Shown here in pieces: positions 13,301-53,300 of a stretch of DNA of 64,000 bases. Both the position numbers and the translations under genes were made by a program. Location of the stretch: contig MU006092.1 in the NCBI GenBank assembly GCA_010093705.1, positions 1,382,350 to 1,446,349 of the forward strand, given 5' to 3'. Position 1 is the first letter of the stretch. Every line of letters begins with the position of its first letter. This stretch comes from Patellaria atrata CBS 101060. Taxonomy: Eukaryota. A model generated the notes under the pieces. That model was not told where the DNA came from and did not search any database. It saw only the letters and a list, made by a program, of their open reading frames with translations.

Positions 13301-13417
13301 ATATGTCTATCAAGAAGTGTGTTCTAGAGCAAGCAAAGACGGCTTATATTGATCGATTCCTATATAGCCTTATAGTACCGTAGCGCACTCAAGAAGATGT
13401 CGTGTAGAAATTCTCAT

Positions 13418-13714
13418 CTAGGAGTAATTGTTGCGTCCATTGGGAAAGCCCATGAATCTCCATCCTCTCACTTCACCAAATAGCCGAGCTCGCTGGGCGA
13501 TACAAGTTGGGTTACGGCAGAGACCTCTGACAGGAATAGAACACCTGGCCTCATAGCATTGCCCTGAAATATCGAAAGGGATACGGTTTTGTGGTTCGCG
13601 TGGATCATTTATTCGATGGAGCTGATGCAACGCGAAATTGCAAAACTGTCTATGGACTATAACCGTTTCATCGACACATCCGCAAGGGTATCTGGCGTAT
13701 CCTATTTGGCACAT
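13418..13714 (-). CDS. Small Cys-rich hypothetical protein (98 aa, MC-x8-CGC N-terminus)
   Basis: Good start context (CTTCAATG), 8 Cys, no signal peptide. The MC..CGC start resembles small fungal orphan proteins. Confidence 0.5.
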   Translation of the reverse strand: MCQIGYARYPCGCVDETVIVHRQFCNFALHQLHRINDPREPQNRIPFDISGQCYEARCSIPVRGLCRNPTCIAQRARLFGEVRGWRFMGFPNGRNNYS

Positions 13715-17314: not shown

Positions 17315-18048
17315 TTAGATGATGGGGCGGGGAGAGGGGGTTGTTGCGCAGTTGATTAGGTTGGTGGGATAGGCATTGGAAGATGCATGCTTCGGGGCCA
17401 CGACTCGATAGGGTTAGCCGCCTCACTCGCACTCAATGGCGCAACTCGTCTACGGGATGAGGATGGAGATTTCACTGCCATGCTAGTTCCACCCACCTCG
17501 CAACATACGAGTCCCCCCTGACATATCAATGCTCTAACCGCCATACCTACCGACGGTTACGCCCAATCCTTGGACGTGAGCAATGCTTCGCGGTGTCTGG
17601 GTACAAGACACTGGTTCGTGAGCTTCGCGGTGGTGATGGTGCTTGTTGCTTTACTGCATATTGGGCACTACGTATCGTCCACGTTTTAATTTAATCTTAG
17701 CGATGATAGGTGAGAATATAAAGGCGGGGAGAGGCTTATTTCAGATATATTCTTCGAAATATCTGAATACGGGAGAAGACGATTTAAGGGGGAGATGGAC
17801 TTGAGAGCGGAAGGGAAGGATACTATAGTCACCATTGGTGGGCGGTTGTGCTGGATAGTTGTCATGATTGATGAAATTGGAATTTTGGTTTATCACACAT
17901 GACTGCAACACGAAGCCGGTGAGGAAATACGATTCTTTCTCTTAATTCCACCATGGCATTGAACTACACACAGCTCCAACGAGCGATGGAACAAAAATTC
18001 CACCCATAACGACCTATCACAGTCCGCCCGTCCTCCCAAATTTTCACT

Positions 18049-19625
18049 CTAAATCGCACCCGCCCTCGCTGCCTCCCCCGCTCCACTCTCCACAACCTCC
18101 TCCCGTCCCCTACCCCTACCTAATTGCCCCTCGCCCACGCCCATCCTCTTCGCCACATACCTCTGCGCGACAACGCCGACCGCAAGCCCCAAAACCTCCT
18201 CGACCCACTCTGCGACCCACTCCCTGGGATCAACACCGCCCTGCTCGACGATACGATAGATCTCCTCGGGCAGCGCGCCATCTGAGCTCTCGTCGTCCGG
18301 GGAGGGCGCGGAGTCCAGCCAGCGGGCCCATTTAGCCGGGAAAGGCTGAGAGAGGGTGTGGAAGTGGAGAGAGTGGATGGGATCGGTGAGGGAGATTGCG
18401 AAAGCGACGAGAGACCCGTCCGGGTCTTGTGAGTTGTCTGGGTTTGAATTTGAGTCTGAGCTTGAGAAGAGGTCGGGTTGGGTGTAGGAGAGTGCTTGGA
18501 CAGCGAGGAAGATGTCGCTTCTGCGGACGGGGTTCGCTTCGTCTAGGATCTCTGTTGCTGCTTTGGCGGCGGCTTCGATCCCGCCTCGGGCGTTGAAGAA
18601 GTCGTTTGCGTAGCCCTCTGCGCTTGCGCGGGAGAGCTTTGTGCCTTCTGGGAGGCCTGAGATGAGGTTTAAGGAGCGCGGTGCTGAGGTGTCGCGCCAC
18701 CAGGGTCCGTCGTTCCAGCCTAAACTGCTGCCGGAACTGGAGGTAGGACGTGCTGTAGATTCTGAACCCCGCTGGATGACGAGAAGGTCGCCGCCTTCGA
18801 CTTGTGACATAACGCGGGAGAAGGTGGTGTAGACAAGGGGATCGAGGGAAGGGTAATTCAACAGGTCATGGGTTAGATGGATTTGCAAGCGTTCGTGCTG
18901 AGAGATTGGCGGTGCTAGGTGATGGATGAGGTTTGTGAAGGTAGGCAGGGCGCGGGAGGTGAGGTCAGTGCCTAGGAAGGGGCCAATCAGCAAAACTATT
19001 TATACAAGATATTTTCTGGTCGGTGCGGTTTACCAATTCCTCGTAAAGCGCCAACATTGCCTCTCATTTGTTCAGCCCATTTCTGTGCTTCTTCATTTTT
19101 CTGAATCTCCTTGACAGCAGCTTCTGCTTGCTTCACAGCTGTGGTAGCTGTGGACAATATACTTCCCCACCATCCGCCACTGCTTGCTTGCTTCTGAGGT
19201 TCCGGTGCAGGTGGTGCTTGTAAGATCTTCTGGTCGCTCTCATCAGCGGGCGTGAATGGTTGATGAAAGCTCCTCGAGCTCTCCCCGCTCTTCCTGGGGG
19301 GGACGGAAGCAGAGTATGACGTCTTATCCTCACTAGTTCTAGCAGAGCCGGTTGACGAAGGAGTAACTACTCCTCCCCTTTTCGGTGAGCGTGTTCGACT
19401 AGTAGTTGTACTTGAAGATGAGACCTTGGGGGTATTGGGTCGACTGGAGGGACGAGGTGCAGCTGCTAGACTTGCTAATTCGGCGAGAGGATCCTCTTCC
19501 TCACTGATAGCAGGCTTTGATGGGATTTTAGAAGATGGTTTGGGAGCTGGGGTAAGGTCATCATCACCGCCGATGCTCGCGAATTGGGCTAAAAGCTCCT
19601 CGTTGGTGAGGGCTTTCTTTGACAT
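18049..19625 (-). CDS. mtc1: Maintenance of telomere capping protein 1 (Mtc1); intron 19033-18972
   Basis: GGWWG..AVKQAEAAVKEIQKNEEAQKWAEQ joins in frame across a canonical intron to LPTFTNLIHHLAPPISQHERLQIHLTHDL..FSRVMSQVEGGDL..DPREWVAEWVEE. Confidence 0.9.
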
Positions 19626-20251
19626 GGCGGATGCAATGGAACAAACAGGACGTAAACAAGAGGTCAGTAGTTGTTGCTATAGAAATCTGTGCGTGAGTTT
19701 CTTCACAGTGAAATGCAAAGGGAGTGTAGGGAACAGTGTAAACAATGAAGTGCAGTGGTGGAGGTCAGGGAGAACCCCACGGCACAAGGGCAGTTAGATC
19801 CGAGCCTGAGGCCCTGTCGCTGGGCATTCCTGAATTTGTGGTGTGATTGGATGGATGGTGCAGGGGTCCGAGTGCCATTATGAACATACACAATGCGAAG
19901 ACTGCGAGACTGCGAAACATTGTCAACTCCCAACCCACTCCTTTTTACCATTATCATCTCTCTTTTTCTCATCTCCTCGAAAGGACACACTCTCCTTGCT
20001 CAAACAAATAAACGCTTTACGAATTTTACGAGTTTGAAAACGCTTCCCATTTGCTCTTGTTCCTGTTCAGTTCGCTCGGTGGAAGGGGCCTGAAGAGAAT
20101 TTGTCTCCGTTACTACCACCATCGTTCTATACCATTGAAATGCTTGTCTTCTCATCCTGAGAATTTCCTTTCTTGTTCTGCCATTTTGTTTGTATTTTGT
20201 TTTAAGATTCAGACCATTCCAAGAAAAGGCTGAGGAGGAGCATTTTCCATC

Positions 20252-23200
20252 ATGCGTACACGACGCTCTTTAGTCACGGCGGAAAAGCCAAACATCATAA
20301 CATCGCCACGGAAAACCAGAGGTACTGTAGATTTCAGGAAACCAGAAGTTCCCCGTAAATTGACTCGATCATCGTCAAATGTTTCAAACGGAAATACTAT
20401 TTTTGTTGGTGGAATCGATGAAGCTAAACCGATCCGGGCCATTTGCAAGAAAGGCCGTTTCCTAATCATTGCTGGAATTCCATCTGACTTTTTGAGTCTT
20501 TTGGAACAACCTGACTCAGATGTTGACGAAGACGAACACTCTTCTAAAACTGCGTCACATGCTGAAGTTGCAGATGATGCCCAAGAAGACGAGGATGATT
20601 TGGAAGATGAACCGGATGATGAGCCGGAAGAGGAACCAAGTCCAGGCTTCAATGAAAAACCAAGAAAGAGAAAATACAAACGACGACGTAGGACAGTGCC
20701 GAAGATCTTGTCACCAGTCCGAAAATCCACTCGCCAGAAACGTGTCAAAGCACTTTCCCCGGAAGCAGACATGGAAGACCAAATCGCAGTTGCTGACGCT
20801 TCATCAGTAAAGGAACAGGGTGCGTCAAATATTACTGAAGAACAATTGCAATTGTCAGCTGCAGCTAGTGCACATGAGGAGCATGAAGAGCTTGAAGACC
20901 TAGAGGAAGAAGATGAGCAACCGGGAGATGAAACCAACGAACCCGAAGATGAGAATATTGAATCAGCTTCAAAAACACTCCAAATCCCGGTTCCGAAAAT
21001 CTCCCTCTCAAAACAAGCAAGTGACGCGAGCAATGTCTCCAAATTATCAAGGTCTGCCACCGGGGATGAACAAGCGGGCGAAGATGGTGAACGGGAACCC
21101 ACACCCGAACTCATAGACGATACAGTACGGGAGTCAGATCTACCTGCCCCATTTCGATCTCGCTCTCCCACACCACCCGAATCATCATTTCCAGACCAGG
21201 CCGCATACTTAGTCAAAACTCGCTTCAAACCCATCACGGACCCCCAACTGTTCATCTCGGCTCTATCTCAACATGACCCCTCAAAACGTTCAACGGCGAG
21301 CTTATACGCTCTCGCGCTCAATACGCAACGTGCTCTCGTAGCCTGGCAAGACGAGTATCTCAAACTAGACGCACGGACTGCTCCCCATGCTCACCCAGCA
21401 AAGAAACCCGCAAAAGGCGGTCGCGAAATTGTTGAGAAGGATATCTGGGAAGGCCTAAAGGAAGCGGAGTTATACAACTACTCCTATGATCATCGCAAGA
21501 CCGCGTGCGAACAAAACCCCTTCGCCCAACGGATCGGTCGTAATGGAGATGCAGGCCGCGAACTCAGAGGCCGTGGAAGACGCAAGGCGAAAGATGTCGA
21601 TGAAACGGAAGATGATGGTGCTAACACAGCTGCTGTCACGGATGTCGCGGCCGAAGAAACTGGTCCTGGTAGACGACCTAGACGTGAGGTCAAGAAATAC
21701 GACGGTGTCGCGCCACCGGCAACACCCGAACCGATCAAAGTCCACGGCAATACCGGTAGAAAGAGGCGATTAGACGTCAGCGCAACTCCCGAGCAAGACG
21801 GTCGCAAACGTGGTAAACACAACGCTTTCCTACCCGCTCGCGTTCGTGAAATGCGCGCCGAGAGTGCAGTGAGCGAGGACACGACCAACAACGAAGAAGA
21901 ACAGAAACCTGATGGTTATGAAACCGAGCGCGACAGCCGCGGTCGACGGATTGGGAAGCGGAGAGGGAGACCGAAGGGGTATCGGAGGTCAAGTACTGGG
22001 CAAACGCATGGGTATACACCGCAGCAACAGCAGGAGGACCAGCAGGATACTGAGGCAATGGAGGCGGATCCCAATCCCGACCCGAGTCCGGGAAGCAGTA
22101 GGAGGAATAGTATTTCGCAACCTCCTACGCCTGTCAATGCGACCCCAACGATACCACCAACGATGCCGCCACCGCCTCCTCCACGTGATACAACCGAACT
22201 ACCCCAACCGATTCCAAACGAGGCTCAATTCGGAGAAGGCCCCATAACACCCGTCGGAACAAGTTCCGGTCCCACAGGCGCGTCAACTAACTTCAACCTC
22301 ACATTCCAACCCTCGTCACGTAAACCCCGTGTTAAATCCGAGAAACGGAGTAAGAGCATGACGAAGTGGTGGGCAGAGCGGAAAGAGAAGGCTGCATTAG
22401 CTCGTGCGAATGGAGAGGTGGCGGAGCCGGCTCAACCTCGTCGTCGTCGAAGTAATCTTTCTGGAGGCGCCGGGAGCGGAGGAAATGAGAGGGGAGGGGG
22501 GGAGAGAGGGTTCCTGCAGATACAACCCGCGGTTGGTGGGCAGGGAAATGTGTTACCGCCAGGTCAAGGACAACAGGTCATATTCCATCAGCACGGACAG
22601 CGGGAAGTGAGGGAACAGAATCCGTTTGCGCAACATGCACCGCCTCAACAAGCTCCTCCACAGCAGGTACAACATCAGACGCCACCGGTAGCGATAGCGA
22701 GAACGGGCTTCGACACAATGCAATTCCCCGAACAGAAACCACCGCATCAATACATCTCGACCTTCCGCTCCGTCGAACCGACCCTCAACTCCTTCCGTGT
22801 CGAACCCGTCCAACCCACAACCCAGACACAACCCGAATTCCCGCCTCCACCGCCCTTAGCAATCCAAACNNNNNNNNNNNNNNNNNNNNNNNNNNNNNNN
22901 NNNNNNNNNNNNNNNNNNNNNNNNNNNNNNNNNNNNNNNNNNNNNNNNNNNNNNNNNNNNNNNNNNNNNCGCCCTTAGCAATCCAAACCATACCTCCACC
23001 TCCACCTCCCCAACAGAGGGAAAGAAGCCACAGTCTCCAAGCGCAGACGCAACCGCAGGACCCAAACCAAACCTATCAACCCCAGGGCATGCATCTTCCA
23101 CCGCTCCACCCCCGCCCTGCAACCCATCATCAACCCCACCCCCACGCCCGCTCTCACAGCCACTCCCACCCGTATTCCCACGACCCCCCGCCCTCGCCCT

Positions 23201-33375: not shown

Positions 33376-36300
33376 TTATTTGACGCCTTTATCATCTTCG
33401 GCTTGACCGACATTAGAGCTTTGCTTGCTTGTTCCCTGCTTACTAGTAGCTGGCCTATCCTGCGCGCGTTCCCGCTCACGATCGTCGTCCTCACTATGGC
33501 TTGCGCTCTCCTCGCTGTCGACTGATGCATCTTTGGATGTAGACTCTCTCCTCAATCGATCCGCAATGTCTTTCAGCGCTTTGGCTTCCTCAGCCGCTTT
33601 CTGTGCCTTCACTTGCTTCTTCCACATGCTATTGTACCTGCCTTTCTTGGCAAGTAGCTCGTCGTGTGTTCCCCGTTCTGCCACTTTCCCTTCGTGAAGA
33701 ACAAGAATCTGATCTGCTCTGACTATCGTGCTAAGACGATGTGCAATAACGAGCATTGTCCGCCCTTGTGAGAGCGTTGTCAATGCTTCTTGAATATGTT
33801 CTTCGGTTTCTGTATCTAGCGCTGCCGTGGCTTCATCCAGTAGAATGATGCGAGGATTCTTTAAGATCGTTCGGGCAATAGCTACGCGCTGTTTCTCTCC
33901 CCCACTAAGGCGAAGACCGCGTTCGCCAACCTTCGTATTATATCCATCGGGAAAGCTCAATATCTTCTCGTGAATGCTCGCGGCCCGGCATGCGCTGTAT
34001 ACGTCCTCGTCCTCGGCATTCGGGTTAGCATACTTAAGATTATACATTACACTTTCATTGAAGAGAACTGTATCCTGAGGTACTACTCCGATATGTCGGC
34101 GCAAGGAATCGATTGTGACGTCTTCCACATCGTGGCCGTCTACTTGAATATTTCCACCTGAAGCATTATAGAAGCGGAATAATAGACGGAATACCGTTGA
34201 CTTCCCCCCTCCTGATTCTCCAACAAGAGCCGTAGTACTCCCGGGAGCACATTCGAAGTCAAGGCCGTTTAGAGCTGGTTTTCTTGCATCGTAAGCAAAC
34301 TGAACATCATTGAAGCGTATATGACCTTCGCAGGATGGTAGAACAGAGGCTCCCGGGTTGTCCACTACAGTTGGCTGTTCTTTGAATAATTCTAGAAGGC
34401 GTTCGGAATTAATCATGGCAGACTGAATCATACGGTAGAACGTTCCGAAAAAATTGAGCGGCTGCTGTAATTGCGCCATGTAGGTTAGGAGAGTAACAAA
34501 CATGCCCACTTTCCGCTGATGAGTCGTGACCTGGAAAGCTGCAATAAAGCATGCAACCATTAAACCTAGTACGAAAATTGCGTTTTGAGTAACATTCATG
34601 AAACTCAACGAATATAGGACTTTGTATTCAGCTTGTTGGTACTTCTTTACGGCGTCGCGATATCGGTTAAATTCGTACGCTTCAGCATTGAAATACTTAA
34701 CTGTTTCGTAGGACACCATTGAATCGTTCCTATTATAATGTTAGCTTAGGTGCTAGATTAATTAGTATAGTAAAAACTCACTTGACAGCATCCTCCTCTC
34801 TATCGGCGTTTACCATTTGTCGTCTCATCTCAGCTCTCCACTGTGCCATTCGAATCGTTAAATAAACGTACCAAAAGGTCACAATCGCAATGACCAAGGC
34901 GTAATACGCATCGAACACGATCAGAAAATAAGCAACAGCAACGATGAGATCAATGAGCATAGGAACGACGGAAAATGTAACCTGTTCGAGAAAGGTATTG
35001 ATGGAGTTCCCTTTGCCAAGCGCTGAGAGGACCTCACCAGTTCTCTTCCCCAGATGAAATTCAAGACTGAGACTATGAACATGTTCAAATGCGGCCACTG
35101 ACAGCTCGCGATAGGAATATTGGCTGACGGGAATCCACATTACAGCACGAGTGGCGCCTAATAGACCATTGGTACCCTGCAAAAGCCGGTAGAGAATGTA
35201 TAAACATATTGAGGCCCAAGGCATGCGTATAGGTCCGTTCTCACCCGCGAGTTCATCTGTGATTTTGCCTACTTGAATAGGGACCAGAAGATTGATTCCT
35301 CTCTGGATTATGACAATGACAAAGCAAAGAACAACGGCTACCTGCAGCTTCCGGTCCTTGGCTGGCCACAGATAGGGAAAAAAGACGGAATATCCTCGTA
35401 GATATTCCCACCAACTTCGTGAAGGTACGGTTGTCGGACGTACCCAACCAGCTGGAGCACCTTCCGTATGTTGATGTTTCCCGCCAACAGGCGCCGAGCC
35501 ATAACCATAACCGTTCGCGTGACCGTTTTCGGAGGGGCCTCCAGCTAAAAGTCCAGTGGTTTCGCTTGGGCCTGCGTCCTCTCCGGTTTCCGTCTTACGG
35601 AATACTACGAATAAAATGTAGAAACCCACGAGGGTGGCTACGAGTAAAATCCGTATAAGGTCAATAGACACCTCTATAGCTTCCCACTCTGTCATATGTC
35701 TTCTGATAGGAACTTGTATATCTTTTCCCGCGTGGGGTTCCCGATGTACTCGTGTGTATACGGCTAGAGATGCTCCTAGCAGAACTACTTCCATTAGAAG
35801 TGCGAGAATCCATGATGACAAATGCGCCCAGGTGGGGGATGGTTGGCTATCGAATAGTGAGAGGACGACAAGTGAGAACACAAAGAAGGATCCCACGATG
35901 TATATCTGACCCGACTCTGCATTAGCATGTTACACGAGAAAAAGAAGCAAAGAAATATGACAGTGCCATGTACCACAACAGATTGTCCGCACCACCAGCT
36001 ATCCTTGCGACTATATATGGCATGAACTATGACATTGACCGTGTTCGCGAGGAACGTTATCGTTGTAATAATTGAGATCCATTCGAACATGAGCTTCTGA
36101 TGTCGAGGAATATCATCCTTGGACTCTTTCTTTTTCGTCCCTCTTGTCGGATCTAGGGATGGTAAAGGTTTCCCGCCAGGTCCTAGGATAGTACTCTTCG
36201 GTTTATTAGAATTACTATTAGATGCGGCTGTTATACCGTGTGCAGTGAAAACTGAAAGGAAAAAGAATAATAGCAGGATAGGATAAGCATAATGCAGAAC

Positions 36301-37333: not shown

Positions 37334-40300
37334 ATGGCGGAACATCCCCGAAGAGCTTCGACCGCTCTACTGACTGCTCCCTCAATAATACCCCCAGCGC
37401 CTCCTTTACCTCCGCAGAAAGAGCAGAGGAGAGAGCTCAACCGTTTTACCAAATTCATAACGCAGCCATTCTCGACGTACAGCTCTAGACCGCCAAGCGC
37501 GCAAGCTCATCGCGATAGCAACAGAACGAACCCGCTTTTCACTAGGATTCCCGGGTAAGCCGTTCATCGCTGATCTAGATCTCCTGACACGCTGTCTGAA
37601 CTAGAACTGACCCAATAATTCAGCATCAGCTCATCTTCACAAGATGCCAGTCATAGAACCGGCCTAGAAATTAGTGCCCTCGACCTCAACCAAGAACGTA
37701 CGCATGCCATACTTGCAGGCCGAGAAATCCTTAAGACGATCAGCATCGATGGGACGAATTGCGTTGAACAGACTAATCTACGCTCTGTATTGCGTGACTA
37801 TGCCTCGCATCATGCAACTGGCACTGGTGGACCAGGAAGATATAGGGAAACACTGGATATCCATGATGTGAAATGGTCGCATGGGCAATACAGCACGCAT
37901 ATAGCTACAGCCGGGACAAGTGGTAAAGTCGTACTGTACGATCTAAATCGCGCAGGCGTTGAGCTCGCTCGACTACATGAACATCATCGTCAAGTGCATA
38001 GGTTGGCTTTCAATCCTCACCAGGGATATCTCTTGCTTTCAGCCAGTCAGGATGCTACCGTCCGCCTATGGGATCTGCGCGACATGCGTAAAGATGTTAT
38101 GACGCAGGTGACGTGTCCGAGTCGAGAGAAATACATTGGGCAAAATGACGGGGTTCGTGATCTGCGTTGGTCCCCAACTGATGGAGTCGAATTTGCATTC
38201 GGTACCGACAATGGTGTTATCCAGAGATGGGACTTCAGAAACGCAAAAGGGCCCAAACTCAAGATCAACGCCCATGATAAGATGTGTCATTCCATCGACT
38301 GGCATCCAGACGGGAAGCACCTGATTAGTGCGAGCTCGGACAGGACCGTGAAGGTTTGGGATTTTTCATCCGAAATACGACGTCAGAAACCTGCTTGGAC
38401 GATCAGAACGCCATATCCCGTCTTTGGAGCACGCTGGCGGCCACCTCACATGTCGAAAGAAAGGCAAGAGCATGGACCATGGCAGTGTACTCAAATAGCA
38501 ACATTCTATGATCGGGAACATCCGACCATTCATATCTGGGATTTTCGAAGACCTTTTCTACCCTTTAGGGAGATCACACGCTATAGTACCGCACCCACAG
38601 ATCTACTGTGGCATTCCCAAGACTTGCTGTGGACTGTTGGTCGTGAAGGGTATTTTGCTCAGACCGATGTTCATTATGCACCGAAAGTAGTGGATAGGCG
38701 CAACCTACAAACATTTGGAGTACCCCCTAATGGAGAAGTGAGTGGCTTTGCGCAAAAGAGACCGCGACGTCGCGGTTCCCGGCATGACTTTAACTCAGAA
38801 AACACATATGCTGATGAGTTTGGAGATAAACTCGACGGAGTTGAGAATAGCTTGAGCAGAAGCTCTGCAGATGATAGCATTGACGATAGTTTTCTCTCGT
38901 CATCTTTTAGGAGGCATCATATTCGAACGGAAAGTAATCGGTCGACAAGGTCTCTGGGTAGCACTCCACCATCGTATGATGATGCAGGCAAGATCATTAA
39001 GCTTGATGAGTCGCTATTAAGTCTAAGAGACGTATTCAAACCCGATCAAATCGCGTTCAGAGGTGTCCTACCCGGCTATCTCAATGTACCCGTTTTTACA
39101 TATCTCGCACAGAAGTATAAGACAGTTTCTTTACCAGACGCAACTAATATAGATTCTTTCAAGAACATACATGTAATATTTAATCAGAATGCTGACTATG
39201 CCCAGCGAGCAGCGTGCTATCGTCTCGCGGAATCGTGGAGACTCGTCGGCATGGTAGTTTCTAACGCTTTGCAGCAAAGAGCTATAGAGCAAAGAAGGCG
39301 GAGAATTGAAGAAAAGAGGAGCAGTGAAATCCCGAAAAGCACCTCCGCCTCGGCATCTAAACCGGAGAGACCACCGGTTACAGCTTTATTAACACCTGCA
39401 AAGCGGACCATACAGTCAGCAGATTCCTCCACGACTAATACAGCTCATCTTGAAAGCACATCCAATCTCCAAACCCCACTTGCTAGACCAGTTACAGTAC
39501 CTACTACTTCCGTTATTGGATCTCTTCCTGATCCAGACCAGGGTGATAGCATAATACTACCCCCGGCAGTCATCGGTACAACGTCCAAGCAGGATGATAC
39601 AGGGAAGGAGGATCTACGGCCTACACTTCGGCGCCCAAGCTTCAGTAGTCCTGGATGGTTGAGCTCCTCGCATGATCTTGATGAACACAGGGAAATGGCG
39701 AGGAATTATCGTGCACAACCTAGGGCGCCCTTAAACCTTGAACCCAGAGCCGGGATGTCCTCAAGCCCTAGCATTGGCATACCACCAACCCTCAACCGCC
39801 ACGATTCTAATGAGAGTTTCACCATGTTCTCTGCGTCCACCGATTCTCAAAAAGCCATGTCACTTGTAACAGTGTCGTTCGCAAGTGGCAGAACTACTTC
39901 TCATGGTAGCATGGAAACTGTCCCTGAGGTATGGGATCAGGGGACGGCATCCCACTCCCATGAAACCTCACCTACCCCTTCTCCATTAGAGAAATACCCT
40001 GACAGCGTCCAAGCCGAAGGATATAGAAATGGTCAACACAATCACCACAACAGTGCTACCAGCATGAAATCAACTATCGAAAGCATTCGCTCCGAAGCTA
40101 AGGGTCGAAGGAGGTCCTCGCTTGCATTCTCTGTCGGGAGCAACGGACAACTTGCCGTTGGGTCGATCGAGCGTCAGGAGAAAGTCAACCAGCAGTTAGA
40201 CACTGTTCGGAGGGACAATCTGTTATTACGTAATGATAGCTCTGAATCCGAGTATTTTATCAGCATTAAAGGGAGTCTAGACCCTTCACCAAGCTATAAC

Positions 40301-41539
40301 GAAGCAATGGAAGCTAGCGGAACGATAGTTCCAGAAGGCTACGCGGAAAACAGATCACCTCAAGTCGATCATACCTCCTTGGAGCATCAAACCACTGCTA
40401 CACCTGTTATACAGCTCGAAGCAGATAAGAGCGTTAAGGAAGAATCGTTCGTTTTATCTGATTACCTCTCTACAAGTAGCACAGTTGATACTGAACAGTC
40501 CAGTCCATTTACAGTGATAGCAATGCTCGAACAACTACTGGATTTTCACACCGGGGCTCTCACTGACGCTCAAACACCCTCACTTCTAATCCTACTGCTG
40601 TCACCTCTTCTTCCACAAACCCATTCTCTCTCTTCAATAGACAAAGAGACTATTCTCAATTCATATTCTGAGTATCTTCCCTCCCTTGGCTTCTCATTTG
40701 AACAGACAAGGATCACTGTCGCCAATCACCTTACGCACCTTATATCCACAGGAATCAACCCCTTGCAAGCAGAGTCAATTCTATCTACATACCATTCTCA
40801 ACTAACAACTCTCTCCTTATATGTTGCAGCAACATACCTCCGACGTCTCTGCTACCCCTGTTACCCCGCCGTCTATGAACAAGCAATCAAAGAGACGCAA
40901 GTCGGCATCCTTTGCAAACAATGCAAGAACCCAATCAATAACGCTACTGACAAGATGATCTGCGAAACGTGCAAGGGACGTCAAGCTCCCTGTCCTGTCT
41001 GCTGGTCCCGAGACTCTCCCTTTGAAAGCTTGGCAAGTAAGAAGAAAGCCGCGAAAGCTCGATCCCGCCGCCAGAGCCGTACGAACAGTGCGATGCGCAA
41101 CTCTGGGATACTGAAGCCTTATTCCTCGCATCAAAATATTCTGCTCAATGGCGCAGCCCCGTCTGGTACACTGGACAAGTATACTGCAGAGATTGCACCA
41201 GTGGAAGCGGCTATCCTATCCCCTCCGCCTATGTTATGGTCCTGGTGTCCGATTTGCGGTCATGGCGGCCATGCCAATTGTCTCGCAACCTGGTTCGCGG
41301 ACCCTTCATTTTCGAGCGGTGGTTGTCCCACGGAGGGGTGTATGTGTGATTGCGTCAGAGGGCCAAGGAGGGATGAGAGGTTGAAGAGGTTAGAGAAGAA
41401 GAACGCGGAGAAAGAGAAACCCAGGGTAAGGGGTGATGAATGGAGGGTTAATGAGAGCAAGGCGGTGGCCGGGGCTAGAGGGGTTCTGGGCGTTCCGGAG
41501 GTGAAGAGGGTCCGGGTCGTCGAACCTGGAATAGGATAG
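37334..41539 (+). CDS. rtc1: SEACAT/GATOR2 subunit Rtc1/Sea2 (WDR24 orthologue); intron 37555-37623
   Basis: N-terminal WD40 repeats (THAILAGREILKT, LLSASQDATVRLWDLR, IDWHPDGKHL) and a C-terminal Zn/RING region (CKQC..CETC..CPVC..CPICGHGGH..C..WF..CPTEGCMCDC). Confidence 0.9.
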
Positions 41540-42892: not shown

Positions 42893-43678
42893 ATGCCGAA
42901 AGAAGCGGCATCCCGTAGATACCGCTTGGAGCGTCTTGGCCGTACGATAGATGCTCTTGCAGAATCAGCTAGATTTGGCGCATCGGCGCATCCGGCCGAC
43001 ATCCAGAACCGCAGTACGCTCCTCACGATCTCGGAATCCGTGGAGTCACAAGCAAAGGAGATATGTGAGTTACGCTCGAACATTCCCAAAGGCCTAGTCT
43101 AACCTGTGTACAGATGCCGATCTCCTTCGTTACGAGACAAAGGCAGCCCACGCCCAATCCGGGTGTGCAGTGTGGGAATCAGCTCTTATGGAGCACGAGG
43201 CGGAGCTGACCCGCCGCAAAGCAAAGCTCGCTCGCGAGGAGACGAGACTCAATAAGTACCATGCCCGCCTCGCGCAAATGGGGGCGGAGCTCCACCGCCG
43301 CGAGTTCGATGTCGCTCGCCGGGAAGTAGATTTTGAGCGTTCGAAGGCGATCGCTCGTGCCAGTATGGCACATCCTGGTATGGATATCTATAATTCCCTT
43401 CCTCTGTGACGAATATCAGGCTGACTCTATTGGCGTGTACAGTACAAGCTCCATCGGTGGCAGATTCGGAAGACAAGAGCTCAAAGTACGAGCGTCTGAA
43501 GACCCGTGTGTGGGCTGGTGTGCCTGCTCCCTCCCCTCCAGAATCATTCACCGAGCGTACGCTCCCGGGTTGGCGTCCCGGTGCCCCGAAAGCCCGTAAA
43601 CGTCATACCTACGAAACTTACCGCTACACCACGGAGCCAGAACGCCCAAAACGCCGTCACAGGAGTGACAGAGATTAA
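42893..43678 (+). CDS. Hypothetical 223-aa coiled-coil protein with a basic C-terminus; exons 42893-43064, 43114-43377, 43443-43678
   Basis: Two short canonical introns (GTGAGT..CTAAC..CAG and GTATGG..CTGAC..CAG) join three ORF pieces in frame. The middle is heptad-like and E/R/K-rich. Confidence 0.75.
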
Positions 43679-44965
43679 AGCAGACAGAGGAGAGGCAGGA
43701 TCATTGCTAGGACCCCTGTAACAGTATTGTACATATAGAGATGCGGTTCTAGATCTATCATACAAATTTTGCCATACAGATTTGGCTCATTCGATCAATA
43801 CGTTCACCAGTCGTCCTTTCCTGCAAGAACTGACCTCCTATACAACTATATAACACCGACTGAGTAAGCTTAGTAAGCAGCCCCTTTTCCGAACTTTTAT
43901 ACCTGTGCCCCCTGTGACAAAGGGATATGATATGACCTGGTCATGCCCCCGATCCATCGCTCTATGGGTCATTCCACCAATCGAACTCCTCTCTTGGGGT
44001 ATACAATCTCCTTACTTCCTGTTTCTTTCTCTTCAAAAATTGGTCGACGAGGTTATTTGGAAGCTGGAGTTCACTCGAGGTTCATTGCTGGCGGATAAGG
44101 AACATTCAACGATACGAACTATTTGCGTGACATAGATAATAATCATTATTGTGGGAGTGATTTTGGCCTACAGATATCTCATCGTGCTGTGGAGAGACTA
44201 AATGAAGCAGTGTTGAGACAATTGAAGGGTTACATGATGTTCAGCACTGGTTCACGGTGATGGTGTTTAACAGCAAGCGATCCACTACCGTGTTTTCTTA
44301 TTGTTCAAAGTGACGTCTTTGGGGTATGTCTTTTGATTGTCCGCGTGAAGAATTATGCAGACGGTAGGAACAAATGATCTCATGGTCACCGGCTTTAGCA
44401 ATGTCTCTCTCTTGTTTTGGGTATAAAGCTCTCTTCTCCTCTTCTACTTTCTTCTTATTTTAGAACCAGTCGTAATTTTAGGGAATTTCAGCTATAAAAT
44501 TCAACATTTTGGAGAAACAGAGGCGAAGCACTTATACTATTTGAGCCGTTGTGGAAGAGAAATGTCAATACCATGGTTTTGAAACTGGTCGGAACTCGAA
44601 CGAATCTCGTCGGATTGTTCTCATCGGTTGGGGGAAGTGGTAATGATATGCAGCTCCCAAACATACTGATGAAATTCAGCAACCATAGTCGATTGTTACT
44701 ATGGAACTCCCCATAATTTACACTTGATAGCTGCCTATGACTTTCTCGCATTATTCCACTGTCTGACTTTTTACTTGACCAGTTCTTAGCATCTATATTT
44801 GGGTATATAAACCTTTACGGCTCTTCTCTTTCTTTCATTCTTTAGTTCTGCAACAACTTCAAGACTCAGGCGGAAATGGAACTTCGAATGGAAATTGAGA
44901 GGAAGAGGACGGGCTCTGGATTTCTTCAGCGCGGCGTTGGAAGGACCAACAATCATCACCTATTG

Positions 44966-45138
44966 TGTCATGACTCAACCTCAGACGAAAACTGAAAGGT
45001 ATATTGCTAAATGTACACGAAGCTTAAACTTAAGGAGAGATAGTATTGAGACAGCATATGCTGTTCTACTAAAGTACAGTATGACTAAGCCGCTGGATCA
45101 TCCAAGGCACTTATACCTATCGAGTCTAATCCGCGACA
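44966..45138 (+). mobile_element. Solo LTR copy 1 (173 bp), TSD TATTG
   Basis: Ends TGTCA...CGACA, with TATTG at 44961-44965 and 45139-45143. Highly similar to copies 2 and 3. Strand is given only relative to the other copies. Confidence 0.85.
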
Positions 45139-45560
45139 TATTGGGGGTTCGGACTGGAACTTTGAGTTGAATGAACCTCTTATTCGGCTCACCTTTGTTT
45201 GATAAGCAGTGATTATGCGGTGTATCTCCACACAAAACTGACGATATTCAGCATAAACAATGTATTACCATTATATCACTCTCCCTATTTGCCCATGACG
45301 TTAGTCTTAAGTTTGTCGTTAGATTGTGTCGTAGCTGACTCTCAACATGCCGATTCTCGGACTCAAGGGTCTCCTTTAGATATATAATCTCTCCTCTTCC
45401 TCTCTATCTTTCCTACTTTCTTAGTTCTACAATAATTTCGAGAGAAGGGTATCTTAGGATAGTATCAAAGATTGGGTGGAGGAATCTCTATAGTAGAATG
45501 TATTGGGCTCGTTGAGCTTAATGGCGAAAAGGATTGTGGTGTGTGAGGAGAGTCAACAAC

Positions 45561-45733
45561 TGTCACGGGTTAGACCCGAAAGGTATAAGTGCCTTGGATG
45601 ATCCAGCGGCTTAGTCATACTGTACCTTAGCAGAACAGCATATGCTGTCTCAACACTTTCTTTCCTTAAGTTTAAGCTTCATGTACATGTAGCAATATAC
45701 CTTGCAGCTTCCATCTGAGGTTGAGCCTTGACA
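45561..45733 (-). mobile_element. Solo LTR copy 2 (173 bp, opposite orientation), TSD ACAAC/ATAAC
   Basis: Ends TGTCA...TGACA. Its reverse complement aligns without gaps to copy 1. The TSD copies differ by one C>T. Confidence 0.85.
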
Positions 45734-48700
45734 ATAACAAGATATCTGGAACTTATTTGGAAGTTGGGGCCGGAAGTGGGAGATGAAAGATCAAAGAGTC
45801 TTGCTGGGTAGTTCTAACCTGCTTGAGACGATATGATATTGATGTTGTGCAGCTACAGGCTACAGCGGTGATGTTCTGCAGGAATGGCTTGATCTCCAAT
45901 CAACCATGATGCCATAAACACTACATCAAAAATGATGGGAGTTATTCCTAACTTACAGTCAACCCCTGACGTAGAAATTATGATCTAATCACACGATACA
46001 TCAATCAGCCTGCGGAATTTTCAACATTTGGTTAATGACTCCCAGTGTGGGTATATAGTTGTCTCCCTTCCCCTGTTTTTCCATTCTCTTGGAACCCACA
46101 ATCAGATCTCAGCTTAACCTGAACATGCTGAGCTGAGCATAGAGCAGCGAATAGACTTATTTGGGGGAACCTAACAAAATCTCCAGGAGATTGTCTCGGA
46201 ACGACCAGCTCTCAATTAGATATGCCTCGAGAAGAACAGCCCATTATTTCTTTTGCAAGCGGGCTGGTTGCGTAGCTAGTGGTGACGGATAGAGAATAAT
46301 GAACCGCAGTCTCAATCAGCCTTAAAGAGGAATAGTAACAATAATGTTTCACTAACATCTCATCTAATATGACTTAAGAGAAAGGTAAGATTATAAGAAC
46401 CCCTGTCTCAGACGAACACTTGGCATACGCCTCACTGGCATCATCGTCTCATTCTTATGTATGCCAGGACAGCTGACCCCTTACTTTACAAGTTTTTGAA
46501 GGATGACTCCCCTTCTTGATATTTCAACCTCTTTTCCTTTTCTCTTTTAAATCTATATTCATATTCTGAGACTAGGCTGGCTGAATTCCGCGATGGAACC
46601 GCATTCTTGGAAGAAGAGAACAAGTCGAATACTTACTGTATCCGACAGATGAGTTCCCGATTGGGTATTGAGAGGAGAAAACTGATATTGTTTTCTCCTA
46701 ACCGGCAGTTGGAAGCTTAGCATGGTTATTGTGTAGTTGACGCTGGTGGATGGAGGTGACGGTGACGAGCAGCCTCAGTTAATCTCGAAGGAGAACGGCA
46801 GGAGTAGTCCTGTTGTGATTTCGTCAAATATCACGTCAAAGTATTTATCGTCTTAGTGTCCCTGGTGACATACCCTACTGCCAAAGATAATACTTGCGAC
46901 CTGCTAACCTCTGAACTTATGCTGTTTAGGCCTCTGCACAGCTCTTGTAGGTATACAAGCCACTAAACATCTTCTCTCTTACTTTTATTTCTTTCACTTT
47001 CCAAGCGTATGGAATGGAGTCCTTCGCATGGCGATATTTGGTGTGATCGAGAGAGAACGTCTCATCAATGAAACGCAAAGAAAAGAAATTGGGAGTGCGC
47101 CTGAAGAGAAATCTACTCTCAATTTTGGCTGGATTCTAAGCACGTGGGCTTATTATCTCGGTACACACTTAGTAACGGGGAGAAGCGGGGAGAACCAGTA
47201 ATGATATCCAAGCTTACCATTTGCTAATGAAATCCAGCAGGAAGAGATACTCTCACCATAGACTATTGAAGCTCAAGGGAGCGTTAATGTATTGTCTTGG
47301 TTCCAAAGCATGACATACTGTACACAATGTACTCAGATGTTTCATGACTTGTGCGTATGTTTGTAGCTCCTAATTCTCACCTACTGGTTTTCGGCAACTC
47401 ACCTCTTTCTGTAGGTATATAAACATTCTCCTTTCTCTACGTCTTCTTCCTTAGGTTCTACAATCTCATGAGAGAATGTGCGACCACACCGTCATTTGGG
47501 AGAGATATAGACAGGTGAACGATATTGGTTATGTTTGCTCCTCGGGCATGATGGAAACAACATCCTCTCCCCTTTTCAGACCGAAAATGCTCCAGGGTCA
47601 GGATTTGGCTACGGTAATAATGAGGAATACAACGGCGTGGTGATAATCCTCATAATCGAAGCCCCATTGCTCTTTACTGAGAGTTATAGCAAAGCCGAAA
47701 AGTTATAACTTCTCTCCTCATCGATGCTGGGATACATAATACTTACCACTCACTTACGCGTATAGCAGATGACCTTCTATCTTACAACCTCGGTTCTTCC
47801 TTGTCTCCTTTATGTATATAAGGCTACAAATTTACTTCACCTTTCCACTTTAAAGAATTCCTCAACATCTCCGGGAGAGCTTAAGTTTGGAATCGGGATC
47901 AAAACTATCATAGAGAGGGAAGTAGGATTTACCGCTCAGTCATTTAGCATTCCGCACTAAGTGGTTCCTTGATGCTCTTAAGGAGACATGAGTCAAACCT
48001 AGATGTTGATTCCTTTCAGACTAACGTACCATTGCTGGATTCCGTGTCCAAGAGCGCACACTTATACATAAAAAGGATTATAATGATTGATCATGTTGTG
48101 CGAGTTTTATGGTAAAGAAAAGAACCAGCAGTAAGATCTTCAGCACAGTCAGGGGTTCCAATAGAGGAGGTAATGACATCCACATTTTCCAAATAACGGT
48201 TCCTGCTAATGAAAGGATGGAGAAGGAAAGTTGCGCAGTAACGCGCTGATTGCGCTTGGGTGGGAGAGGAATTGTTGCAATAAACCGTTCATTGCTTTTG
48301 GGCGGGCTTCAGATGAACCTAACTGTTCCATGGTCAGTCGAAGAGAGTAAGGGGATCTTAAAGCATATAAAGGGGTAATGATGTCGAGTTTCAGTTTAGA
48401 AGGATGAAGATGGTAATCATCATCCACTCGAGATTCGAGGATATAATACGGAAAAATGAAAAAGATAAGTGGCGTGGGAATTATAGAACAATCTCCTAAG
48501 AGTATAGTTTTATGAAGTATGTCTATGTGTGTGGAGTAAGATTCAATGGAGCTCGTAGTTTCATCTGCTTTCTCATGCACAATAACATGTGTAGTTCTAG
48601 CAATCACACCCTTAATTTGACAAGTCTACCTCTTGACACCTCCCCTCTCGAATTTATATAACCTTTCTTCCTCTACCATTCTTCACTCTTTCACTATAAT

Positions 48701-50101
48701 CAACGAGATCTTTTCCGTGGAATATATCCTTTATTGAATAATTGGGTCGGTAGACAGGAAGGCCGGTACTACTTACCTGCTGAATTCAACTATCAAAACA
48801 TTCTTTTCCTCGGACCGTTGTGAATGAAAGATGAAACATAGAAACGTTAGGTCAGTGGTACCGGTGATAATGGTCAATTTTGATTGAGAAAGTTGAAGTT
48901 TGGTAGTAAGAATGTCTCTGCCGGGCCATTATCAGTTTAAGAACTAGAGATAAGTTACAATCTGGATCAAACATGTGTCTAAGATATGATACTCCGTAGT
49001 TCGTATAGGTTGCAGTTTTTCTCTTGACATCTCGCGTGGGCTAGAAGTATGACGTAAAGTTGATAGGTATCGAGGGATCACGCTTCGGGACTCCGGTGAT
49101 CGGTCATCCTCCCTCATTTTCAAAAAAATTTATCCCATTTTTGCCCACTTGTCTCCACCCTATCCACATATTATACAGATTGGATACTCTCCTGGAGGTG
49201 GGATAGGACTGTCATTGCCTGGAAGAGTAAAGGAAGCAACATGGGCCCTGAATATTGACTTCTAGGGAGGGTTGGCCGCTTCAAAGTCCTGACCCCAATC
49301 ATTTCTATCTTTGCCGCAGGAGCAGGATCTGGCATTGGGTGGGGCCTGCCACTAAATGATAAAATCAATCATAGACTGATAAGGGATATGATGGCGTATA
49401 GCTCCATTTGGTGATGCTATAATTCAGCAAAAACATATTCAGGCCGAAGAGGAATCAAAGACGAGTTCAGAGCCACAGTTTAACCACACATTGGATATGA
49501 TTATTAAAGCATATCACGCTCCCCTGCTTCTAGTTCCGAGCTATAAGCATGACTCAGAATGTTCTATTGTCATAGTACATTTATACTGCAATACTGATCA
49601 TCTGCACGTTCACCCCTGATTATATAAGACTCACCTTTCTCTTCTGATTTGATTTCTTATCTTTAACAACGACCTTATTCAAGAAACACCAGTGAGAAAA
49701 CGTAAGGAAGCACTGGCGTGTTTCTAGGGTCGAGAAGTGTCTGCAGCTCCCATAGTGAACTCTTTTCATTGCGTGGCCATAAGTCATGATAAGTAGAATT
49801 AATTCACAAGCTCCAAGGTAGGTAATCGTTTATCACGACACAAGTCATCATCATGCAGTGCCCTTAAAGATCCTTACGTTCAGATGGTAATATCAATCAC
49901 TATTCTTTCCCCAAACCGATTCACTTCCTGAACCCCGTAATTCTGGATGTTCTGGAACGCTAAGTAGGCCCCTTATCAAGATACTAACACAATTCTATAC
50001 CTGGATGTGAGGTTTTTTCCAACTAAAAATGCCACAACAATTTTCTCTGGTAGGCTTTTGCATTCACCTCCCTCCCTTGGCGCGGGCCGCAAGAGCACAG
50101 C

Positions 50102-50338
50102 TGTCAAGGCTCAACCTCAGATGGAAGCTGAAAGGTATATTGCTACATATACATGAAGCTTAAACTTGAGGAAAGAAAGTAAAAGAGAGTGTCAGAACAG
50201 CGTGAGCTGTTCTATTAAAGTACAACATGACTAATAAATGAAAGTACCAGAACAGCGTGAGCTGTTCTATTAAAGTATATCATGGCTAAGGCGCTGGATA
50301 ATTCAAGGCACTTATACCTATGGGTCTAGCCCGTGACA
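50102..50338 (+). mobile_element. Solo LTR copy 3 (237 bp, with an internal duplication), TSD ACAGC
   Basis: Ends TGTCAAGGCTCAACC...CCCGTGACA, with ACAGC at 50097-50101 and 50339-50343. Confidence 0.85.
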
Positions 50339-53300
50339 ACAGCAACTAAATAGTCCATCACCATGAAACAATATTCAATCCTGACCCTGGAGCTTGTTGA
50401 AAAGTGGAGAATCAAAGGGGAGAGGAGGTATTTATCCCTAGAGCCTGCGATACTGCTACCCTCCTTGTACGTTCAATCAGAGCGTATGGTAAATCCATCA
50501 TGGGTGAGGCTATCACGGGGTCTTACGGTCCTGGCCTTCAGCAAACAGTCAGCCAGATAAGTTTCTATCTTTCGTAAGTTATATATCTACTAATAGTCTT
50601 TCGCCTGTGCGATAGCAGTGAATCTCACGCTGTTCCTGTGTTGTTGATCATCCCCTCTGAATGATAACGTCATGCACCACTCTCAGGAGAGCAGTTTTTT
50701 CCACCTCGAAGAAGAAAGATAATGGGATTTGAGCATTCCAGGAGAATGGTGCTCCCTTCAAGGGAACCAAGAAGCGAACAATGCATTACATCTAGTTTGG
50801 GCACCCGCCCAAATATCGTTTACAGCCCAGAATGTTTCATCCAGATGATCCTAAGGAAAAGTAAAGATAAAGGAGAGAGCAAAGAAGCAAAGATAAATAG
50901 ACCTATATAATTCTGTATTACCAAAGTCACAAGACCAAATGATCGGAAGTGTCATTTTTCTCCATCATGGGTGCTCAGGGGTCGTAAGGGTTTATCATAA
51001 GCTTATCATCTCGTGAACGTACAAACCAGTAGCACAAACACCACACTGGTGAGACCCAGTGCACAACCAGTACACGAATTTTATTTCCAATATTCACTGC
51101 TTATCACCCGTTCTCCGAGGTGGTTGTTACACAACTCATCATACCTCTCTAAACCCGCTGGAATTTGACTCATCTAGAGTAGTTTGCCTTTAGTGTAAGA
51201 GAACAATTGGCGTTCAGACTGATCGAAAAGTGCAGGGCCTGCTCTCTAATAGGAATAATACAGGAACACTGGTGAAGTTATTCTTCTATTCATTCCCAAG
51301 CATGCCCCGGAAGATTCGCGGAGAGGAGAGAAACAGTAAAGAACAGGGAAGATATAGCTCTAGACGCAGCGATATCGCTATATTACTTTTCCGTATGATT
51401 GAATGACATAGAGTATTCTTCTTACCATCCTACATACTCAGGCGCTGATATAAACCTTACGTTTTTTGGACGTACGGAACTTCAGAACTCATCCCCAAAT
51501 CCCCATTGGTAGACTCCGTCCTTCTACAAATTTTTCATTATTATTTTATAATACTGCTGGTCGTCATTCCGCCATAAAGACGAGAACAGTCATCGTGTTC
51601 TTTGGAGTCTCCCGTGAACACCAGTTTGGCTTGAACCCTACAGCCAGAGAGAGAGCCGCATCCAAAAATTGTCAAAATGCTCTGCGGATTTTATTCCTTC
51701 TATTACTAGGGAATGAAAAACGCAATCACCAACAGCCGCACGACTGGATCATGTTTTGACTTAGCAGCACAGCAAATAAAGCCTCGCGCTGATCGAAGTA
51801 TCAGATTTTTGATTATGGTGCTGGAGAGGTCTGGAGAAGAAACAAATGGAGAACGAAAGATAATAAATAGACGCCGACCATGCTACGACTCATGTTTTGT
51901 GACCAGCTGATGGACATGTGGAGGACTCATCACGTCGCCCTATCGTCATAAGAACTCAGGGGCTATCATGGGATATTTTAATCTCACGTTGAGAGTACAG
52001 AAGCAACTAAACTACACAGATATTACTTACTCTTCTGTCATTCCCAAGACCTCCACTGAAGAGGGAAGAGATGCTGAAAGTCTTCACTCCCCAATGATGG
52101 CAATCATCATCCCAGATAGCAAACCTCCTATTCTCCCTGGTCTCTCCAGACCAATTTTTTCCACTTCGTCAACTGAACAAGGGCAACCCCAGGAAAATGC
52201 ATATCTATCCATAGTGGCGCCCAAAAACACTGCAATAAATGAATTTGATTCGGGCCGAAGATAGCATAGTGGTTGTTTTCGAGTAACATATGTTGCGGTA
52301 CCACCTAACCGACGATCCACCCAATTGAATATTGATCTCGTATATGTCCGTAATCTGTATTTCAAAACCTGTCAGATATTTAGTAGAAAGAAACACAAGG
52401 GAAAGGAAGAGAGGCGGAAAATATAGACTCAGAACGAGCGATATCGCAGAAGTCCCTTTGTAGAGTGTTCAGCTGCCAGTACCACAGATACGTCTGAAAT
52501 TGACACACAGTTATACGTATTCAGGGGCTATCATGAAGCTTACTCATGTTATGGAGAAGGCTCTACTACAAACCTAAACGTTTGAAGAGGGAAGTGTCCT
52601 TCTATGATAGTGACGAATACCACCTTTGTGTGCGGTTGACGATGACGACTATCACTCCTAGACGATGTCCTTCATCGCCTTATAAGCTCTTTTCCCTCAA
52701 ATCATAATTAAGGCTTTTATTTCAGCTAGGGTAAGAAGCAATCCTAGAAAATGATGATCGACGTTGGCTCCAAAGACACCACGATATCGTGTCGAACACT
52801 CCACCGACGGCCCCCTGAAAATGAGAGTCTTTGAGAGTCGCTATCCAGCTCCAAATAGAGGCTCTGGATCTTGTTTCAGAGAGAAGAAACGGGGAAGAAG
52901 AGGAGATATATAGACGTCGAGTGAGCGGAATCGCTGTAATTCTTGGCTCAGGCCATGCAACTCTTCTCCCTGAAGAGGAAGTTAATCATCAGTTCAGAGT
53001 TCCAGCATTGAGACACATGTTCATCTTGTGCCCAAGTGAGATCCGCAGGTATTCCATTGTAGTCAATTTTAGAACTTGTACCGTCTTTTTTGTTTCTCGT
53101 TATATCAGACCATGTGCATGCCCTGCGATTCGGTCTTTCCAAAAGGGAAACGTGTAAGGCGGGAGGAAGGGTGAAACGCAGCGGTAGTATATTAGTGAGA
53201 ACAGGGCGGAGGAAGTGAAGATTAGATATCCCGCGGGAGAAACAGTCAAAAGATACTGCTGTATATATTGAATCTCAGCAGAAAAAATTTCATTTCTGGT

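Follow-up and report, generated by a model that had tools for sequence, protein, structure and literature searches.

A convergent array of about eighteen promoter-headed units in an ORF-poor stretch of the Patellaria atrata genome, a candidate family of short RNA polymerase II units

We analysed a stretch of 64,000 nucleotides from Patellaria atrata CBS 101060 (GenBank assembly GCA_010093705.1, contig MU006092.1, positions 1,382,350 to 1,446,349, forward strand), hereafter called the window, whose own numbering is used throughout. Our analysis revealed an array of ~18 promoter-headed units in it, extending over ~9.4 kb (43980 to 53270) that are poor in open reading frames (ORFs). The array is bordered on the left by a small coiled-coil ORF ending near 43678, and on the right by a tRNA-like element followed by a Zn2Cys6 factor gene (53.9–56.5 kb, minus strand). 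No stop-to-stop ORF of at least 150 amino acids (aa) was found between 41539 and 53897. The GC content of this ORF-poor stretch is 0.40–0.44, versus 0.45–0.53 in the gene-bearing flanks, and the fungal domains present in the window include Fungal_trans, ABC transporter, kinase and DUF5427/MTC1. Depth was measured in two genomic DNA runs. It was even over genes and desert and showed no joints, and both runs were therefore taken as DNA contigs. Over the units the depth was 432–600, which is the single-copy baseline (about 430).

The units form two convergent sub-arrays which meet near 50.3 kb (Table 1), with eleven TATA anchors on the plus strand and seven on the minus strand. Sixteen units are clear; the other two, P6 and M1, are weak and were not matched by the promoter hidden Markov model (HMM) presented below. 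A preliminary description, made from the sequence alone, had seen a single layout along the whole region. The layout was confirmed, but the right-hand third of the array, from 50.4 to 53.3 kb, has its units on the minus strand, a point which that description had missed. It gave a unit spacing of 400–560 bp; with the long terminal repeat (LTR) insertions subtracted, the units measure 354–568 bp, with two exceptions of 840 bp (P9) and 966 bp (P10). These two double-length units probably hide decayed units. A TATA box, GCATATAAAGG, lacking a CT tract was found at 48365 (+) in a double-length unit. At ~49100–49170 (+), likewise in a double-length unit, lies a CT-rich stretch that has no good TATA and is followed by ATTGGA. 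These two features may be what is left of two more units, and neither was matched by the promoter HMM. Tandem Repeats Finder detected no long-period array between 43500 and 53800, and blastn between units returned 5 short matches only. The array does not consist of head-to-tail copies at least about 70% alike, as a satellite or a recent tandem repeat would.

Table 1. Coordinates of the sub-arrays, promoter cores and other features of the array. E-values are those of the promoter HMM (15 segments, −25 to +62); "held-out" refers to the split-half models.
Feature	Position	Strand	TATA anchor	Remarks
Plus-strand sub-array	43980..50101	+		units P1–P11, reading rightwards
Minus-strand sub-array	50344..53270	−		units M1–M7, reading leftwards, toward the plus sub-array
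P1 core	43984..44056	+	44000	TATACAA, then CT tract; E 8.1e-7; held-out E 0.21
P2 core	44407..44482	+	44422	TATAAAG; E 9.2e-6; held-out E 0.16
P3 core	44785..44863	+	44804	TATATAAA; E 2.6e-7; held-out E 0.0027
P4 core	45361..45441	+	45381	TATATAAT; E 1.1e-6; held-out E 0.0011
P5 core	46032..46108	+	46052	TATATAG; E 3.5e-8; held-out E 0.24
P6, weak/decayed	46500..46580	+	46520	GATATTTCAA, then CT tract; aligned with the other promoters by MAFFT; no HMM match
P7 core	46941..47012	+	46952	TATACAAG; E 5.4e-7; held-out E 0.34
P8 core	47397..47473	+	47416	TATATAAA; E 9.3e-8; held-out E 0.12
P9 core	47795..47874	+	47815	TATATAAG; E 4.3e-5; held-out E 2.3; unit 840 bp
P10 core	48634..48711	+	48655	TATATAAC; E 3.1e-4; unit 966 bp
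P11 core	49602..49678	+	49621	TATATAAG; E 1.7e-4; held-out E 2
M1, weak promoter-like	53200..53270	−	53266	ATATATAC; identified by eye; no HMM match
M2 core	52857..52935	−	52912	TATATATC, read on the minus strand from the anchor; E 5.4e-9
M3 core	52365..52447	−	52425	HMM match; palindrome GCGATATCGC (52438–52447) just upstream
M4 core	51812..51890	−	51868	TATTTATTA; E 3.2e-7
M5 core	51301..51380	−	51359	HMM match; palindrome GCGATATCGC (51369–51378) just upstream
M6 core	50842..50920	−	50909	TATATAGG, read from the anchor; E 1.1e-4
M7 core	50383..50455	−	about 50436	GATAAATACC, then CT tract; untrained; E 1.9e-5; E 8.2e-4 with the M-only model
Intron-like element in P2	44640..44679	+		40 nt; GTAATGATAT...CTGATGAAATTCAG
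Homologous intron-like element in P7	47198..47237	+		40 nt; GTAATGATAT...CTAATGAAATCCAG
Solo LTR 1	44966..45138	+		TGTCA...GACA; target duplication TATTG; 162 nt past the P3 TATA
Solo LTR 2, inverted	45561..45733	−		flanks ACAAC/ATAAC; 180 nt past the P4 TATA
Solo LTR 3	50102..50338	+		target duplication ACAGC; internal 55-nt duplication; at the convergence of the sub-arrays

A composite element was scored, on either strand, wherever the 50 nt directly past a TATA-like heptamer had a C/T content of at least 72%. Nine composites were found in 43900–53300, versus one in the remaining 54,659 bases of the window. Dinucleotide-preserving shuffles of the region (300 in number) gave a mean of 0.05 and a maximum of 1, and five other ORF-poor stretches of the window contained none at the same threshold. 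The array exceeds both shuffled sequence and other intergenic DNA, the two controls which the preliminary description had proposed, and the recurring TATA and C/T layout that it reported is present; so are the six strings it quoted, at 44419, 44801, 45379, 47411, 44640 and 47198. The lone outside composite, at 35904 on the minus strand, lies inside an ABC-transporter ORF and looks like chance.

The promoter HMM, built from 15 segments, recovered these 15 and also an untrained one at 50383–50455 (−) with an E-value of 1.9e-5. In the rest of the window, outside 43.98–52.94 kb, it found nothing better than an E-value of 1.6. Recovery of its own training units is partly circular, and therefore the plus units were split in halves. 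With the odd-unit HMM, held-out P4, P2, P7, P11 and P9, together with M7, outrank all outside sequence of the window, and with the even-unit HMM P3, P8, M7, P1 and P5 rank first in the window. HMMs built from the plus units only and from the minus units only recovered each other's units weakly (E-values 0.98–5.3), yet these were their top untrained matches.

We then compared the parts of the unit with each other, by local alignment of all 136 unit pairs in successive 60-nt segments scored against 20 shuffles. The segment from 0 to +60, counted from the TATA, had a mean z of 1.64, and 34% of the 136 pairs exceeded a z of 2. The segment from −60 to 0 followed with a mean z of 0.46 and 16% of the pairs, and the seven other segments between −180 and +360 had mean z values of 0.08–0.31, with 6–12% of the pairs above 2. 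This peak at 0 to +60 indicates that the core promoter is the best-kept part of the unit. The units thus exist and form a family which, within the window, is confined to this locus, and the promoter is its best-conserved part.

A TATA-like box and a CT tract stand in register in 15 out of 17 units. The purine fraction is 0.19–0.30 in the first 40 nt and 0.55–0.61 at +60 to +100, and the first CA at or after +30 lies 30–62 nt from the anchor in the 17 units. Further downstream, the motif [AT]TTGG[GAT], which was defined post hoc after inspection of the data and is counted from unit anchors picked by eye, was found 50–165 nt past the TATA in 14 of the 17 units. In the controls it was found in 5/17 and 3/15 units in the two intervals that follow and in 1/17 antisense, and 500 shuffles gave a mean of 4.9 and a maximum of 11. 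Several of its instances belong to homologous words of greater length, for example TTATTTGGAAG, present in P1 and P4.

Previous genome-wide mapping by 5′-specific RNA-seq in Aspergillus nidulans placed the TATA 30–45 nt upstream of transcription starts and found a pyrimidine-rich sense strand from −50 to +25 with CA at the start (PMC4046813). The units of the array share this order and spacing, with a TATA-like box, 35–45 nt of C/T, and CA or CAA 30–60 nt past the box. The view that a TATA box with a CT-rich tract is the typical core promoter of filamentous fungi agrees with this mapped plan, and at the level of sequence the units have the elements of an RNA polymerase II (Pol II) core promoter of such fungi. 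They differ from the A. nidulans promoters, as far as these are described there, in that here the promoter is repeated ~18 times at roughly 350–560 bp with no ORF behind it. None of the other promoters in the window fits the profile of the array.

The bodies of the units are related as well, though weakly. Body similarity is above chance in 12% of the 136 pairs (z>2), the best pair being P2–P3 with a z of 6.8. The patchy body homology noted earlier is genuine but slight; 44630 and 47188 match at 78% over 23 nt. A 22-nt match, in inverted orientation, links P8 with M7. Taken with the residual body homology, this match indicates that the units share descent and that both sub-arrays are related. 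An old tandem amplification which kept the layout while the bodies diverged had been suggested before, and the cross-validated HMMs, the peak at 0 to +60 and the weak body homology all bear it out.

Three solo LTRs interrupt the locus. They have TGTCA...TGACA ends and 5-bp target duplications, which confirms the LTR insertions of the preliminary description, and belong to one multi-copy family, with a depth of 10,000–21,000, tens of times the baseline. Their termini, duplications and depth all fit insertions of solo LTRs of a multi-copy retroelement. They differ from the units, being later insertions into the array and outside the unit family. LTR 1 and LTR 2 lie in opposite orientation in neighbouring units, and LTR 3 lies exactly at the convergence; these positions hint at an insertion preference for the locus or for promoter-proximal DNA.

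The units themselves might be old transposon or LTR debris, that is, decayed copies of a promoter-carrying repeat, an origin which the preliminary description had listed as an alternative. LTRs carry TATA promoters, three genuine ones lie in the locus, and the unit length would suit small LTRs or miniature terminal-repeat elements. However, the units follow each other without gaps, in one orientation per sub-array, and show no TG...CA ends, target duplications or match to a transposon protein. They also stand at single-copy depth (432–600) versus the 10,000–21,000 of the solo LTRs, no transposon domain was found in 35 ORFs, the HMM has no match elsewhere in the window, and there is no signature of repeat-induced point mutation (RIP). 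We consider this the least probable of the explanations, and a very improbable one.

RIP is recognised by a TpA/ApT index above about 0.89 and a (CpA+TpG)/(ApC+GpT) index below about 1.03. In the region these indices are 0.82 and 1.21, with a composite of −0.39, versus 0.79 and 1.13 in the rest of the window. A RIP-degraded repeat array was rejected, as neither index is RIP-like and both are alike in the region and in the remainder of the window.

The units have no ATG position in common, and no peptide beyond the translated promoters, in agreement with what had been noticed in the units translated earlier. The first ATG past the tract opens a frame of 1–6 codons in 9 of 17 units, the longest being 53, and in M2 and M4 none of the ATG ORFs past the promoter reaches 12 aa. 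The longest sense ORFs have a mean of 31.6 aa, versus 40.7 aa antisense and 34.7 ± 3.9 aa in 200 shuffles. ATG ORFs of 38–57 aa were found in 8/17 units, while shuffles give 6.3 ± 2.0 units with at least 38 aa and the antisense strand gives 10. A codon-usage score trained on 4,695 codons from the long ORFs of the window had a mean of −0.08 over the array, compared with −0.11 to −0.01 in four other stretches outside ORFs and 0.01 to 0.20 in six held-out ORFs.

Pfam matched none of the 35 ORFs of at least 55 aa. A phmmer search with the 57-aa ORF of P7 against 1.84 billion representatives and a word search with the 95-aa ORF of M3 returned no matches, and no CaaX-ended frame recurs among the units. 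The ten longest ATG ORFs (53–98 aa, both strands) were all absent from a collection of 15 billion proteins upon exact look-up; as a control, the clustered form of this collection returned the annotated MTC1 protein of this genome. No ORF is common to the units or longer than chance, whereas a protein-coding family (micro-proteins, effectors or pheromone precursors) would be expected to have one.

These results bear on a second explanation, in which the units are fast-diversifying micro-protein genes, each encoding a different very short peptide under diversifying selection, possibly with small introns. About half of the units do have a short ORF behind a strong-type promoter, and a possible 40-nt intron in P2 and P7 would suit such genes. 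But sense ORFs no longer than antisense or shuffled ones, the lack of a usable ATG ORF in M2 and M4, first frames of a few codons in over half of the units, non-coding codon-usage scores, the absence of any homologue or database entry in the searches made, and the lack of a recurring CaaX-type frame all argue against them. We hold this explanation to be quite unlikely, and the chance length of the sense ORFs also weakens the earlier idea of decayed micro-protein genes.

The 40-nt element common to P2 and P7, GTAATGATAT...CTRATGAAATYCAG, has a donor, a branch-like CTRAT and a CAG acceptor, and on these features reads like a very short intron. A splice-site scan gave chance candidates too numerous to read.

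Rfam returned no match at gathering score in the window. At E-values up to 10 it gave four matches between 43000 and 54500, all at chance level (E-values 0.57–1.5). ARAGORN found no tRNA, and a scan for bacterial promoters and terminators found nothing relevant. Known structured RNA families (small nucleolar RNA [snoRNA], small nuclear RNA [snRNA] and ribozymes) were rejected as candidates, with no Rfam match and no excess folding.

The explanation we put first, though it falls somewhat short of probable, is that the array is a tandem family of short Pol II units, old and restricted to its lineage, in which the promoters would be conserved and the bodies non-coding. In this scheme, ~11 units reading rightward and ~7 reading leftward would make up an old single-copy tandem family converging near 50.3 kb. 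Each unit would carry at its head a core promoter of the type canonical for filamentous ascomycetes, made up of a short CTCYCYT stretch, the TATA box, the pyrimidine tract of 35–45 nt and a CA or CAA start 30–60 nt past the TATA. Selection would keep the core promoter, while the bodies of roughly 300–400 nt would drift almost to randomness with no reading frame. Since the bodies have drifted without a reading frame, the products would likely be non-coding RNAs, short and unstructured. Alternatively, the function might be the act of convergent transcription itself.

In a third explanation the array could be dead, consisting of pseudogenes of a once protein-coding family of small genes which was amplified in tandem and is now decaying, with the promoters as its most recognisable remnants. 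The residual homology across units, the ATG ORFs of 38–57 aa still present in eight units and the intron-like element common to P2 and P7 would all be expected of it. Yet a count of eight units with ORFs this long is at shuffle level and below antisense, and the 0 to +60 segment is far better kept than the rest. Under neutral decay an 8-nt box should disappear no more slowly than its surroundings, and such a box in register in 15/17 units next to near-random bodies is hard to fit to it. This argues that the promoters are under selection, and a dead array, while worth serious consideration, is unlikely. From selection on the promoters we infer that they fire; the sequence likewise suggests where the transcripts would start and end, and that either the RNAs or their transcription would matter. 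The phrase of the preliminary description, "individually transcribed non-coding mini-genes", would apply to the units on the same inference.

Several points weigh against a family of units with selected promoters. Selection on the promoters is argued entirely from the comparison of promoter and body among paralogues, and the shuffles used as controls preserve composition, not kinship between units. Of the units, two to four appear decayed, namely P6, M1 and the double-length pair, and two more are split by solo LTRs, which also fits a dying array. The units showed neither excess folding nor an Rfam family: the folding energy of the segment from +45 to +265 in 17 units was the same as in shuffles (mean z −0.11 ± 0.18), so that snoRNA-like or hairpin precursors are not supported. 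The best shared 8-mer in the bodies, with one mismatch allowed, was found in 13/17 units, versus a maximum of 11–13 in 20 shuffles, which is not significant. With no excess structure and no shared k-mer, the RNA looks unconstrained apart from the post-hoc ATTTGG-like motif.

Among known systems, the nearest analogue in layout is the 21U-RNA cluster, which shares the principle only. In C. elegans, the clusters of 21U-RNAs (type I Piwi-interacting RNAs) hold tiny autonomous units in their thousands, and every unit has a motif upstream (PMC3597512, PMC10197682). Both systems have many small clustered units, a conserved upstream element for each, and unrelated bodies. The 21U-RNA units, however, number more than 10,000 in megabases at tens of bp each, versus 18 in 9 kb at about 450 bp here, and they use the Ruby motif, whereas the array appears to use an ordinary TATA/CT promoter, recognised here from its sequence. 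The analogy drawn earlier holds no further than the presence of many small units that each have an upstream element. To our knowledge, Ascomycetes have no Piwi.

Arrays of small-RNA genes (snRNA, spliced-leader RNA and snoRNA) would also resemble this one, being head-to-tail, with a Pol II promoter for each gene and a short non-coding body. Such arrays keep the RNA sequence or its boxes, whereas the bodies here are unrelated, unstructured and without an Rfam match.

The convergence of the sub-arrays brings in a fourth explanation, that of a chromatin element. The locus might be a promoter-dense, ORF-free domain of ~10 kb acting through polymerase loading and convergent transcription, for example a short regional centromere or a boundary. 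The centromeres of Zymoseptoria tritici have a mean size of 10.3 kb, a GC content slightly below that of the genome and no consensus motif (PMC4589918), and the array is similar with its ~9.4 kb and a lowered GC of about 42–43%. The central domain of the fission-yeast centromere is described as having many promoters on both strands, with stalled and colliding polymerase (PMC4349457). The likeness extends to ~10 kb without ORFs, lowered GC, promoter-like sites, convergence and retroelement remnants; the LTR insertions and the converging sub-arrays of the locus would fit. But nothing places the centromere of this scaffold here, and a given gene desert has a low prior probability of being such an element. 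The promoters of the array have a strong consensus and are ordered and related by descent, whereas those of the centromeres are scattered and weak; ordered same-strand TATA/CT promoters are not known as a centromere feature, and for a centromere of the Z. tritici type only size and GC are compatible. We regard a chromatin element as highly unlikely.

A broader proposal, which we consider possible but doubtful, is that the array represents an undescribed fungal element of ~18 ORF-less Pol II mini-units. Here selection would act on the promoters and their convergence, not on the RNA sequence, and the function would lie in variable short RNAs or in transcription itself, with polymerase loading or collision marking a chromatin domain, possibly a short regional centromere. 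Our literature search for comparable fungal arrays or for this locus found none in the titles and abstract openings covered.

If the promoters fire, the locus would be a natural case of promoter architecture kept over ~18 paralogues while the transcribed sequence drifts. In a group amenable to genetics, it would tell "transcription matters" apart from "transcript matters". It would also bring in a class of loci which fungal annotation pipelines centred on genes may miss; the ten longest ORFs are missing from the 15-billion-protein collection. Should the locus instead be a chromatin domain, for example a centromere, it would connect the short centromeres found in Dothideomycetes with the central domains of fission yeast, which are rich in promoters. 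With silent promoters, it would be a decaying orphan gene array of modest interest.

The palindrome GCGATATCGC occurs in exactly two copies in the 64 kb, both ~12 nt upstream of a TATA (M3 and M5). It could be a factor-binding site specific to the minus sub-array.

The tRNA-like element at the edge of the array (53297–53400, +) has an insert of about 60 nt, holding a 28-nt tandem repeated twice, between two end segments. One of these ends is reminiscent of the 5′ half of a Leu/Ser-type tRNA, and the other of its 3′ half. The element was not called by ARAGORN and had no Rfam match at E-values up to 10, and the depth of the bins around it is 3–4 times the baseline. It could be a tRNA-derived repeat or pseudogene.

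Among the neighbouring genes, the MTC1 (DUF5427) ORF lies at 18049–18999 on the minus strand. Its product is 100% identical to the protein annotated in Patellaria atrata CBS 101060, a dothideomycete, and the next-best match is 65% identical. An open frame of 1306 aa at 37619–41539 (+) has N-terminal WD40 repeats and a Cys/His-rich C-terminus, and it resembles the WDR24/Rtc1 type. Two adjacent ORFs at 33376–35929 (−), with ABC_membrane and ABC_tran domains, probably belong to a single ABC transporter gene that an intron interrupts.

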